NCBI RefSeq assembly: GCF_003790525.1
Contig: NZ_CP033635.1
Reading direction: 5' to 3' (one strand)
Source of the DNA: Escherichia coli
Lineage (GTDB): Bacteria; Pseudomonadota; Gammaproteobacteria; Enterobacterales; Enterobacteriaceae
Length of the DNA stretch: 64,000 bases
Shown: piece after piece, positions 3,267 through 27,068 of the stretch
Numbering within the stretch: the stretch's first letter is position 1
Layout: every line of letters starts with the position of its first letter
Program-made: the position numbers and the translations under genes
The notes under the pieces: generated by a model
Database searches by the model: none
What the model saw: only the letters and a program-made list of their open reading frames with translations
Told to the model about the DNA's origin: nothing

Positions 3267-3494
3267 GTATTGCCATTTCCTTAACCCCACCTGATAACCC
3301 TTAGCCCAATGGTGAGTGCGGAACTGTCAAACCCGCTCACCGGGCTGAGTTTCGATGTAGCAAGAATTATCTCCCTCCAGACCACCACGGAATATTCGGT
3401 AACACTGAAGGAACCTGTTTTTCACCATGTAGCCTTCGTTAATCTACACCTTTCTAAGACTGTAAAGATGCTTAAGTGTTTTGACACATTATGA

Positions 3495-4322
3495 TTATTA
3501 ATAGTTGTAATAAATCATTGAGTAACAATTGATAGGCCAAAACATATAGGATAATTCTTGTGTGATCTGTATTTTGTGTAGCCTGGAAATTAGTAAAATT
3601 CCTGGAGATAATCAGAAAGGGAATTTCAAATAAGCATAATAATTTCCAGTGAAACTATTCGTCGATTTTAAGAAATGTCTGCTCAGGTATATCTACTGAG
3701 GGATGGTGTTGGTTGTAACACTGGTTAAAATAAATACACAAAATAATCAAGATGTATATTTTAATCGACGAAAATAATTACTTTCGGGATTATTGATGCA
3801 ACTTAAATAACACCATTTAAATGTGATATAAATCACAAATATGGCTGTAAAGAGGGGGCTGTAGATATAAATAAGAAGTACACGAGTGAATTTTAAATAG
3901 GGAAATAGTTTCTCGGTGAACAATTTATTGGTAATCAATCGCGTGCGTTCTGGTTTGAAACAGATTGCAGGTATTGTTACGCATAAAATCCATAGGGGAT
4001 ATTATAATCAAGTAGTTAACAGTAATAACAAAAAATAATTTCCTGAGAAATTAACTCTGCATTCTAAAACGGCCAGTTTTCTGAAATTACCAGAAGACCG
4101 AATACATTCATGCCTGAAGAATGGATTAGAAGAAACGAGACGGAAATAGATCTATTTATCCCTGCGGAAATAATTTCTGCTGAAATTGTTTGCGGCTATT
4201 AAAAAGGTCAAACCGTCTGAGTAAATTTTATCCAGTTACAAACAAGTATTACCTCCAGTGTATTGGTAGCTGTTAAGCCAGGGGCGGTAGCATACCTGAA
4301 GAGAATAGGGTCACATCATCAA
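3495..4322 (+). promoter_or_regulatory. AT-rich kps region 3 promoter and long 5' leader upstream of kpsM
   Basis: ~0.8 kb AT-rich non-coding DNA upstream of kpsM; group 2 capsule loci are known to have a distant promoter and long leader; exact -35/-10 not assigned. Confidence 0.4.
4283..4294 (+). promoter_or_regulatory. ops (operon polarity suppressor, RfaH-dependent) element GGCGGTAG in the kpsM leader
   Basis: Exact GGCGGTAG core at 4283-4290, about 33 nt upstream of the kpsM ATG at 4323, the position expected for group 2 capsule region 3. Confidence 0.75.
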
Positions 4323-5099
4323 ATGGCAAGAAGTGGATTTGAAGTCCAGAAAGTCACCGTAGAGGCATTATTTCTACGAGAAATACGAACACGCTTTGGT
4401 AAGTTCCGTCTGGGATATCTGTGGGCGATTCTCGAACCCTCTGCGCATTTGCTGATACTGTTGGGCATTTTTGGTTACATTATGCACCGCACGATGCCAG
4501 ACATCTCATTCCCGGTGTTTTTACTTAATGGCCTGATTCCCTTTTTTATCTTTAGCAGTATCAGCAATCGTTCTGTAGGTGCTATTGAAGCGAATCAGGG
4601 GCTGTTTAATTATCGACCAGTAAAACCCATCGATACGATCATTGCGCGTGCATTGCTTGAGACACTGATTTACGTTGCTGTTTATATATTGCTTATGCTT
4701 ATCGTCTGGATGGCAGGCGAATATTTCGAAATAACAAACTTTTTACAACTTGTGCTTACCTGGAGTTTGTTAATCATTCTTTCATGTGGCGTTGGCTTAA
4801 TATTCATGGTCGTTGGTAAAACCTTCCCTGAAATGCAAAAGGTCCTGCCGATACTGCTTAAGCCGCTGTATTTCATCTCCTGCATCATGTTCCCTCTACA
4901 CTCGATTCCGAAGCAATACTGGTCATATCTACTCTGGAATCCATTAGTGCATGTCGTAGAGTTAAGCCGCGAGGCAGTTATGCCTGGCTATATCAGCGAA
5001 GGCGTGAGTCTGAATTACCTGGCAATGTTTACATTGATAACTCTGTTCATTGGTCTGGCGTTATACCGAACTCGTGAGGAGGCAATGCTGACATCATGA
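4323..5099 (+). CDS. kpsM: capsule polysaccharide ABC transporter permease KpsM
   Basis: Protein from MARSGFEVQKV matches KpsM as I recall it; multi-TM ABC-2 permease; ATG 4323 chosen over the upstream in-frame start of the track ORF (4263). Confidence 0.9.
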   Translation: MARSGFEVQKVTVEALFLREIRTRFGKFRLGYLWAILEPSAHLLILLGIFGYIMHRTMPDISFPVFLLNGLIPFFIFSSISNRSVGAIEANQGLFNYRPVKPIDTIIARALLETLIYVAVYILLMLIVWMAGEYFEITNFLQLVLTWSLLIILSCGVGLIFMVVGKTFPEMQKVLPILLKPLYFISCIMFPLHSIPKQYWSYLLWNPLVHVVELSREAVMPGYISEGVSLNYLAMFTLITLFIGLALYRTREEAMLTS

Positions 5100-5198
5100 T
5101 TACTTATCACTAGTATAAAACAGGAACAACATCATAGAAACATCAAAAAAACAAAAGTATATATCTATTGTATTAAAACTTTAAAATCAGGCTGAATA

Positions 5199-6191
5199 AT
5201 GTTAACAGCTATAATTCCGATAGATCTGAAGCGTAGACCTAAAGATATAATTAGAAAAGCAATAAATATTGCTGAGGCAACAAAAAATAATAATATAAAA
5301 GTTATATTTGGTCATGGGAATCGTTTCACTACATATGATCGCACCTTTACAAGATTGTTAAATGGGTATGAGAATGTCCATGTAAAATCATGCGATAATT
5401 TTTCTAAGGCCATAAATGCATCTCTATTAAGAAATCAGGCGTTTAAATCAGTTGAAAGTGAATATGTTATATTACTGGATGTGGATATATACCCTGATTT
5501 TAATTTATTTGAAAAGTATAAAGAGAAAATAAAATCTGGCATAAAGCCGTTTTATATTTTGCCATGCCTATATTTAACAAAATACGGGACAAGTATATTA
5601 AATGATAGAAAGGCTTCAATTGAATCATTAAAAAAAAAGTACTTTGCGTTTTCTAGGAAAGAGTTTTTGCATTTAGCCAGCCCTTCTTCTATTACAATAT
5701 TAAAATCAGCTGATTATGAAACACTTCATGGTTTTGATGAGAGTTTTCGAGGTCATGGCTATGAAGATTTTGATTTCTTGGTGCGCTTGTATAACCATTA
5801 TTTTATACCTAAAGTAAAGGCTGATTTTTTGGCCGATAGGCCATGTCATTCTCCATTGTTTGTCACAGGGTTTAGACGATACTTAGGCGAATACTGTTTA
5901 GATATTTTATTGCATAAAGACTTTGCGTTTCATTTATACCATAATAAAAACAGGAATGAAGATTATTATATAGCTAGAACTGAAAATTATCATATATTCA
6001 AACAGAAGCACAAAAAAAATATAAGCAATGAACGATATTACGATTCAACGTTGCTTATGTTATTTATTAAACACTGCATTGATAAGGGGGAGGACATTCG
6101 AAATTATAGCATATATTTCGATAATAAACCTGGACATATAGACCGTTACGATACGTTACGACGAAGAATTAAATTTTTGCTAAATCAATAA
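5199..6191 (+). CDS. GT-A fold glycosyltransferase (serotype-specific capsule region)
   Basis: 330 aa, AT-rich; DxD-like LLDVDIYP and GFDESFRGHGYEDFDF motif typical of GT2/GalT-like transferases. Confidence 0.7.
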   Translation: MLTAIIPIDLKRRPKDIIRKAINIAEATKNNNIKVIFGHGNRFTTYDRTFTRLLNGYENVHVKSCDNFSKAINASLLRNQAFKSVESEYVILLDVDIYPDFNLFEKYKEKIKSGIKPFYILPCLYLTKYGTSILNDRKASIESLKKKYFAFSRKEFLHLASPSSITILKSADYETLHGFDESFRGHGYEDFDFLVRLYNHYFIPKVKADFLADRPCHSPLFVTGFRRYLGEYCLDILLHKDFAFHLYHNKNRNEDYYIARTENYHIFKQKHKKNISNERYYDSTLLMLFIKHCIDKGEDIRNYSIYFDNKPGHIDRYDTLRRRIKFLLNQ

Positions 6192-6210
6192 ATTTTAGTG
6201 AAGGTGTGTT

Positions 6211-26519: not shown

Positions 26520-26800
26520 GAGCAACATGATGCTACGATTCATTTCACTCTTCGTTCTTTCTGAGCATTGCGTTCAGGATGGTCAGCAATTTACGCATAC
26601 AGTCAACCAGCGCCACTTTTTTGGTTTTTCCGGCTGCTGGCAGATGCATGTAAAACGCCTTTATCACCGGATTAAACCAGGTTACCACAAGCGCTGCCAT
26701 GTGCAGGGCTGCTCTTGCCTCCGTACGCGCACTGGCGTCGTTCGGCCAGCAGATATGTGTGGGATAACAGGGATGTTATGTGAACTGAACTGTGTTTTGT
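26520..26800 (-). mobile_element. IS110-family transposase 3' fragment (remnant)
   Basis: Minus-strand translation ...[43 protein letters not shown] resembles the conserved C-terminus of IS110-family transposases; N-terminal part absent. Confidence 0.55.
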
Positions 26801-26881
26801 TAGCGGGGGATGTTTATTGATGATTCGGGAGTGTTTAAGACCTGATGGCGTTATGCTCCCAAGTTTATTTTATATAAAGAT

Positions 26882-26912
26882 CCAAAAGCAAAAACCCGCC
26901 TTGTGGGCGGGT
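26882..26912 (-). terminator. rho-independent terminator downstream of the tRNA-Phe 3' end
   Basis: Stem CCCGCC/GGCGGG (26895-26910) followed on the minus strand by a T-run. Confidence 0.6.
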
Positions 26913-26925
26913 TCTTAAGAATTAG

Positions 26926-26975
26926 TGGTGCCCGGACTCGGAATCGAACCAAGGACACGGGGATTTTCAATCCCC
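26926..26975 (-). other. pheV: 50-nt 3' fragment of tRNA-Phe (acceptor/T-arm through anticodon-stem region): island junction direct repeat
   Basis: Minus strand reads ...GGGGATTGAAAATCCCCGTGTCCTTGGTTCGATTCCGAGTCCGGGCACCA, matching the 3' ~50 nt of tRNA-Phe as I recall it; 5' part of the tRNA is replaced by unrelated/degenerate sequence. Confidence 0.75.
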
Positions 26976-27068
26976 ATGTCATAAAATTCAGATAGTTACG
27001 GGCATGTCAAGTTGTTGTCGAAGTCTTTCATGCGCATCCGATCACATAACTGTCGATAGGACGCAGAT

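Follow-up and report, generated by a model that had tools for sequence, protein, structure and literature searches.

Group 2 (ABC-transporter-dependent) capsule loci of Escherichia coli, among them those of K1, K2 (strain CFT073) and K5, are located between yghD and pheV. They carry region 1 (kpsFEDUCS), kpsM behind a JUMPstart/ops leader and, between these arms and convergent to region 1, a region 2 rich in adenine and thymine (AT-rich); three tiers of guanine-plus-cytosine (GC) content and a K-type-specific C-terminus of KpsS are also found in these loci. Reviews by Roberts and Whitfield reportedly put K5 region 2 at about 33% GC, region 3 at about 42% and region 1 at about 50%. Low GC (at or below 40%) is typical of polysaccharide gene clusters, in which regions 1 and 3 are the recombination arms (PMC10433991), and K1 region 2 genes have 26–32% GC (PMC5654933). 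The conserved-variable-conserved structure with a low-GC region 2 is thus already textbook knowledge. Here we analysed a 64,000-nt stretch of E. coli DNA (RefSeq assembly GCF_003790525.1, contig NZ_CP033635.1; hereafter the window), in which an initial annotation had noted a compositional mosaic with boundaries at insertion sequence (IS) remnants. We found that the interval from yghD to pheV is very probably an E. coli group 2 capsule locus and that its GC steps are very probably the standard composition signature of this class.

The limits of the locus were obtained by genome comparison. Positions 1–26975 of the window match the E. coli CUVET17-1418 chromosome at 99.996% identity, and an integrative and conjugative element (ICE) in pheV is the sole difference. 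Gene calls were taken from the Prokaryotic Genome Annotation Pipeline (PGAP) annotation of CUVET17-1418 and from Pfam matches of the window proteins. From left to right the genes are gspJ, gspK, gspL and yghD; kpsM; a GT-A glycosyltransferase gene; a TagF-like polymerase gene; kpsT; genes for an acyltransferase/DUF7796 protein, a nucleoside triphosphate (NTP)-transferase-like protein, a HAD phosphatase and a 525-amino-acid (aa) protein; an IS3-family pseudogene; kpsS, C, U, D, E and F on the opposite strand; an IS110 fragment; and pheV. The initial annotation had named the gsp genes, kps region 3, the serotype-specific genes, kpsS to kpsF, a tRNA fragment and an ICE, and all of these calls were confirmed. 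Homology to K-12 MG1655 stops at 3265 and restarts at 26878, so the kps island occupies 3266–26877 (23.6 kb) and stands in place of about 100 bp between yghD and pheV of K-12.

We then compared the locus with those of three other K-types, CFT073 (K2), HM670 (wecB/wecC) and PEC403. Only 5103–17855 is replaced between them, while the arms are 93–100% identical. On the left, homology runs to 5102, three bases after the kpsM stop codon, and on the right it starts at 17856 and leaves out the final 66 nt of kpsS. Among the four K-types KpsM has 97.7–99.6% aa identity but KpsT only 73–87%, and the last ~22 residues of KpsS differ in each. To CFT073, region 1 is 93–100% identical (97.5% nucleotide identity over 17856–26944), and kpsM with its JUMPstart/ops leader is 95–99.6% identical to those of known group 2 loci. 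Identity in the right arm is lowest beside region 2 (90–97% in kpsS and kpsC, mostly 98–100% from kpsD to kpsF), a gradient that fits crossovers spread across the region 2-proximal part of the arm. Within 5103–17855 the only nucleotide homology to the CFT073 or PEC403 loci is a kpsT stretch of ~75%; the HM670 locus shares, besides this stretch, a homologue of the glycosyltransferase gene (GalT) at 72.5% nucleotide identity.

The arms and the block between them also differ in how widely they occur. Coverage of at least 80% was reached by the leader plus kpsM (3267–5200) in 1,514 genomes and by the right flank (25771–26925) in 1,496 complete genomes, which span many K-types. In contrast, the whole 5103–17855 block, and with it this region 2 gene set, is present in just 39 of 5,426 complete E. 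coli genomes. A search of the literature on strain names and Kaptive K-loci yielded nothing usable as a K-type name for this locus. APEC E19035 was considered as a K1 reference and dropped, as the ICE there is in another context.

Composition was followed over the whole window with a 1-kb sliding GC profile and maximum-likelihood change-point segmentation; an interval scan was added after binary segmentation had overlooked a short AT-rich dip upstream of kpsF. The segments were 1–3390 (0.56, gsp genes), 3391–4251 (0.32), 4252–5092 (0.44, a plateau over kpsM), 5093–16470 (0.30, kpsT and all serotype-specific genes), 16471–17587 (0.47), 17588–17935 (0.28), 18407–45884 (~0.50, a single segment save for the dip at 25786–26368) and 45885–64000 (0.59, part of the ICE). 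Past the yghD stop codon (3266) GC drops from 0.56 to 0.30–0.35 in about 100 nt, and at 5.1 kb neighbouring 100-nt bins fall from 0.45 to 0.23. The main steps had change-point log-likelihood ratios (LLRs) of 290–330. Against an LLR of 290 for the top single change-point, the null maxima were 9.3 (300 mononucleotide permutations) and 126.6 (300-nt block shuffles). The GC steps are therefore far outside chance. The change-points at 5092 and 17935 sit within 10 and 80 bp, respectively, of the homology breaks at 5102 and 17856.

Codon usage gave the same picture. GC at third codon positions (GC3) is 0.61–0.64 in the gsp genes, 0.48 in kpsM, 0.47 in kpsS and 0.49–0.60 from kpsC to kpsF, and falls to 0.20–0.25 in all seven genes of 5199–16216, kpsT included. 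GC at first and second positions (GC1 and GC2) is lowered across the same genes as well. An index of the codon adaptation type, with weights from eight flanking core genes, parallels the steps, with values of 0.65, 0.54, 0.48–0.52 and then 0.59–0.71. The main steps thus pass a check by sliding-window GC and codon adaptation, and the initial annotation was right that the AT-rich stretch includes kpsT (GC 0.326, GC3 0.21) and every serotype-specific gene (GC3 0.20–0.25).

Some parts of the initial description need to be changed. The stretch from 3.3 to 17.7 kb is strongly AT-rich as described but is not uniform, since it contains the kpsM plateau (0.44) and an IS3 remnant (0.46). In the part labelled "intermediate", kpsS has 0.44; the label does not suit kpsC to kpsF, which at 0.49–0.55 are at the E. 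coli genome average. The main GC steps are real by change-points, permutations and comparisons, but the final step, at the tRNA fragment, and the coincidence of boundaries with IS remnants did not hold. The three tiers also occur in the CFT073, HM670 and PEC403 loci and in a further E. coli locus (L010), with region 2 at 0.23–0.34, kpsS at 0.44–0.46 and kpsC to kpsF at 0.51. This indicates that the pattern is a property of the locus type and not of the strain.

Three nested layers are present. The outermost is the 23.6-kb kps island, between the core genes yghD and pheV. Inside it, a 12.75-kb AT-rich cassette lies between the arms kpsM (left) and kpsS to kpsF (right); such cassettes would be swapped by homologous recombination with crossovers in the conserved arms, and the two large inner GC steps, one at the stop codon of kpsM and the other 22 codons short of the kpsS end, would be the scars of this exchange. 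The difference in GC shows that cassette and arms have had different histories, and the cassette is presumably of foreign origin. The third layer is a SPI-7-type ICE that inserted later in pheV and left 50 nt of the tRNA gene as a repeat. Transcription of the cassette presumably starts at the region 3 promoter and proceeds past the JUMPstart/ops leader with RfaH-dependent antitermination. Since kpsT is inside the cassette, a region 3 read-through transcript must carry kpsT too. The claim of separate acquisitions in the initial annotation is supported by comparison, that is by an ICE site that is empty elsewhere and by the replacement of region 2 between the arms, but not by GC or by the IS remnants.

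On the left, gspJ (partial), gspK, gspL and yghD/gspM, which are core genes of type II secretion, occupy 1–3266 (+ strand, GC 0.56; CUVET17-1418 annotation). The region 3 promoter and leader, which form the left end of the island, follow at 3267–4322 (+; GC 0.32–0.35, change-points 3390 and 4251). JUMPstart/ops is found in this leader upstream of kpsM at 4256–4294 (Rfam JUMPstart, 53.6 bits), and the ops motif GGCGGTAG is at 4283–4290, 32 nt ahead of the kpsM ATG. Promoter and terminator matches in the region 3 leader were no more numerous than in shuffled sequence. The conserved left arm itself, kpsM, encodes an ABC-2 permease (4323–5099, +; Pfam ABC2_membrane, GC 0.44).

The K-type-specific block, or region 2 broadly defined, is 12.75 kb (5103–17855, GC 0.30). 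Its first gene encodes a GT-A glycosyltransferase annotated as galactosyltransferase-related (5199–6191, +; Pfam Glyco_tranf_2_2 and Glyco_transf_7C, GC 0.30, GC3 0.25). This is followed by a gene for a TagF-like CDP-glycerol/polyol-phosphate transferase of 1,244 aa (6211–9945, +; Pfam Glyphos_transf, E 3e-41, GC 0.28), which is presumed to be the capsule polymerase; in the PDB it gave only a weak match, to TarL. The next gene, kpsT, encodes the ABC ATPase (10117–10797, +; Pfam ABC_tran), with 76–79% aa identity to other E. coli alleles. Four further serotype-specific genes lie within 11017–16216 (+; GC 0.29–0.33). They encode the acyltransferase/DUF7796 protein (829 aa), an NTP_transf_3-like protein (13544–14290, +), the HAD phosphatase (14271–14642, +) and the 525-aa protein (14639–16216, +), for which no family match was found. 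From these genes the predicted capsule would resemble teichoic acid, with hexose and polyol phosphate in the polymer and O-acyl groups on it.

The position of kpsT differs from that in known group 2 loci. Here kpsM and kpsT are not adjacent; two biosynthesis genes intervene, and kpsT is located about 5 kb downstream, with the composition of the cassette, between the polymerase and acyltransferase genes, which adjoin each other in Aeromonas bivalvium and in E. coli L010. Around kpsT the only direct repeat was one 10-nt AT-rich match (D2), probably due to chance. A displaced kpsT is also present in the K7-like loci of HM670 and LD67-1 (L004 30984–31658 and L011 11619–12293), which have a wecB/wecC region 2. 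As in our locus, a homologous GT-A gene (72% aa identity) directly follows kpsM in these two, and their kpsT has a low GC3 (0.26). They differ in that kpsT is at the far end of region 2 beside kpsS, the other region 2 genes are unrelated and there is no IS3 remnant. Atypical kpsMT arrangements have already been recorded in the Kaptive scheme (bioRxiv 10.64898/2025.12.15.689991). We treat the displacement of kpsT as an organisational variant of the group 2 locus and not as a reason to exclude it from the class.

Unlike known group 2 loci, region 2 here finishes in a decayed IS3-family element. This element is nearly full length (~16410–17621, − strand; a PGAP pseudogene, GC 0.46), with change-points at 16470 and 17587. 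It carries multiple frameshifts and stop codons, and HTH_Tnp_1, HTH_21 and rve_3 are found in three minus-strand frames. Over about 1.2 kb it can be aligned with IS3-family elements at 79–85% (85% for the best other E. coli IS), and copies at least 99% identical are found only in the 39 genomes that carry the same K locus. Both ends begin TGCA but otherwise matched poorly, and we found no convincing terminal inverted repeat. The second remnant is an IS110-family transposase fragment (26545–26727, −; annotated by PGAP in five loci), which is 88% identical in nucleotide sequence to intact IS110 elements and gave no match in the Pfam scan. It has the same position in CFT073, PEC403, LD67-1, E1648, Br_112_kylling and CUVET17-1418, and it lies in the right-flank segment that is covered in 1,496 complete genomes. 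The fragment is an old scar and belongs to the right flank that is conserved among group 2 kps loci.

An Rfam match to isrN, an Hfq-binding small RNA (sRNA), scored 124 bits at 17137–17279, entirely within the remnant; it is most likely IS-derived sequence and not an independent sRNA gene. A 16-bp imperfect hairpin with a T-run behind it spans 16372–16425, where region 2 meets the left end of the remnant; it may be a terminator or belong to the IS end.

Since both IS remnants are present near compositional changes, the modules could instead have been joined by transposition or IS-driven rearrangement, with the IS3 and IS110 remnants as both junctions and cause. The IS3 remnant separates the last biosynthesis gene from kpsS, and since it is K-locus-specific and decayed it could have come with the cassette. 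However, there is no IS at the left inner boundary (5102), and the IS3 remnant lies wholly within the K-specific block, its end 234 nt short of the homology break at 17856; the remnant is thus cargo of the block and not its border. The K2, PEC403, HM670 and L010 loci have the same GC steps with no IS at that place, which largely establishes that breakpoints are common across K-types without an IS. The IS110 scar is found in the 1,496 genomes whatever adjoins it, be it pheV, a pathogenicity island or an ICE, and the kps/ICE junction is a tRNA attachment (att) site and not an IS. We consider assembly by IS elements very unlikely, and on the cassette-exchange reading both remnants would be passengers or scars, not junction-makers. 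The initial annotation was correct that both remnants exist near boundaries, but they neither mark nor explain them. A mosaic produced by mis-assembly or a chimeric window was refuted and has next to no chance of being right, since the whole locus is present in 39 complete genomes, one complete genome agrees with 1–26975 at 99.996% and the kps/ICE junction recurs in Br_112_kylling.

A different objection comes from relatives of the cassette in other hosts. We compared orthologous cassettes of Aeromonas bivalvium (L008 8971–16593), Enterobacter sp. NFR05 (L009 8967–14710) and E. coli L010 (8187–13834), which share the GalT/TagF-like gene pair. Protein identities in the three loci are 56–65% for the GT-A protein and 42–47% for the polymerase, and 69–70% for the acyltransferase of Aeromonas (69%) and L010. 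These low identities indicate that the three loci are not donors. They also differ from our locus in that kpsM and kpsT are adjacent in all three, and in Aeromonas the order of the export genes is group-3-like. The acyltransferase gene of Aeromonas is followed by what is left of the window's NTP-transferase gene, 26 aa at 88% identity, so this gene order is shared. Cassette GC is 0.31–0.35 in Aeromonas, 0.32–0.34 in Enterobacter and 0.23–0.33 in L010, whereas export genes and flanks follow the host, at 0.52–0.66 in Aeromonas (flanks 0.58–0.66) and 0.49–0.59 in Enterobacter (flanks 0.53–0.59). Since orthologous cassettes are AT-rich in three genera at deep divergence, low GC travels with the family or is maintained in it. 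Since they are AT-rich in hosts of different GC, GC cannot date or count transfers.

Low GC could then be a long-lived, maintained property of the cassette and not the footprint of a recent low-GC donor, kept by selection for H-NS/RfaH-type control or rare codons or by circulation in a shared AT-rich pool, so that the steps would separate functional classes and not acquisition times; PMC10433991 argues likewise in general terms. We regard this as possible but clearly the less probable account. In its favor, GalT, TagF-like and acyltransferase orthologues at 42–69% protein identity persist at 31–35% GC in Aeromonas bivalvium and Enterobacter, hosts of 55–62% GC with host-like export genes. Consistent with this, kpsT has a GC3 of 0.21–0.26 when embedded in region 2 and of 0.36–0.38 when beside kpsM, in a handful of alleles. 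However, independent recent imports from various AT-rich donors would look alike, and the lowering of GC1 and GC2 agrees equally well with selection and with a long stay in an AT-rich genome. The comparison draws on three hosts and that handful of kpsT alleles. The stronger form, in which cassette AT-richness is maintained independently of the host, is no donor footprint and may be adopted by genes that move in, is in our view doubtful.

Several points weigh against reading the locus as a standard group 2 island with an imported cassette. Searches with KpsT and the polymerase, and a plasmid search, identified no cassette donor, and neither protein had a close relative outside E. coli; distant searching of plasmids gave only partial matches at 69–75%. 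The nearest relatives of KpsT (77–81%) are in Ewingella, Rahnella, Yersinia, Pantoea and other E. coli alleles, and those of the polymerase (37–50%) are in another E. coli locus, Aeromonas bivalvium, Citrobacter and Enterobacter. All named relatives thus belong to Enterobacterales, plus Aeromonas for the polymerase, and none belongs to a low-GC genus. The location of kpsT away from kpsM is a departure from canonical region 3. Finally, recombinational exchange and dependence on RfaH are steps that we infer, and we count this against the reading too. Exchange of an AT-rich cassette within a group 2 locus nevertheless remains the explanation that we prefer.

The third layer was resolved at pheV. 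The core pheV 3' flank (26878–26925, −) is 100% identical to K-12, and the next 50 nt (26926–26975, −) are the 3' end of tRNA-Phe, an att repeat left by ICE integration that is present as a single copy in the window; ARAGORN found no intact tRNA in the window. The alignment to the intact pheV of CUVET17-1418 breaks after 26975, and that site is empty of ICE. The empty site of this nearly identical strain is direct evidence that the ICE arrived separately. Homology to CFT073 (L003) halts at 26944, 19 nt into the tRNA-Phe remnant, compared with 50 nt at the ICE junction (26975), and different pheV elements leave att repeats of unequal length.

The element is a SPI-7/PAPI-1-type ICE (26976–64000, +). 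Its genes include parA, dnaB-PI, parB, an STY4528-family gene, topoisomerase III, ssb, pilL, a TIGR03759-family gene and traD. It shares the backbone of parA, dnaB-PI, parB, STY4528, topoisomerase III, ssb, pilL and traD with the SPI-7/PAPI-1/ICEclc family, and the type IV secretion system with TraD is of the GI type. As in that family, the site of integration is the 3' end of a tRNA gene, and the repeat is long (50 nt). The annotated ICE of Br_112_kylling, which has the same kps/ICE junction, covers 82% of the window's ICE at 98% identity. Only one end is in the window; neither an integrase nor a second att site was seen in the 37 kb inside it, and the element continues past 64000, with the second repeat outside the window. 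The initial annotation had placed the start of GC-rich ICE DNA at the tRNA fragment. We found no GC step at 26975, where both flanks have ~0.44–0.54; the ICE has a GC of 0.50 to 45884 and steps internally to 0.59 at 45885 (LLR 177), at the start of the pilL/type IV secretion system module. The GC-rich part therefore begins ~19 kb away from the junction. A STAXI RNA motif (Rfam RF01728, 139 bits) is located at 42617–42770, between the topoisomerase III gene and the ICE open reading frame that comes next downstream (42938–43402).

The right arm shows the features of region 1. The six genes (kpsF, E, D, U, C, S) are in one operon, all annotated in CUVET17-1418, and cover 17790–25734 (−). The last of them, kpsS (17790–19022, −; GC 0.44), ends in 66 nt (22 codons) that are K-type-specific. 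Upstream of kpsF the AT-rich dip at 25786–26368 (GC 0.30, best-interval LLR 50.5) covers the region 1 promoter and regulatory region and is conserved among kps-positive genomes. A second exact GGCGGTAG octamer lies antisense in kpsS (18470–18477, +); about two per window are expected by chance. E. coli E1648 (L012 10286–16380) has a truncated kpsC, an IS630 pseudogene and an inverted second kpsC/kpsS pair, and its kps locus is a rearranged or hybrid capsule locus.

This analysis provides exact limits for the kps island (3266–26877), the exchangeable cassette (5103–17855) and the ICE junction (26975), and its importance beyond annotation is small. GC steps pinpoint the breakpoints of the cassette but miss the real mobile-element junction. 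An embedded kpsT and low cassette GC across three genera bear on capsule-type swapping and on in silico typing. If AT-richness is indeed maintained, this locus would, together with the K7-like loci, make up a sub-architecture of group 2, in which the ATPase is inherited with the polymer-specific genes and not with the export arm.

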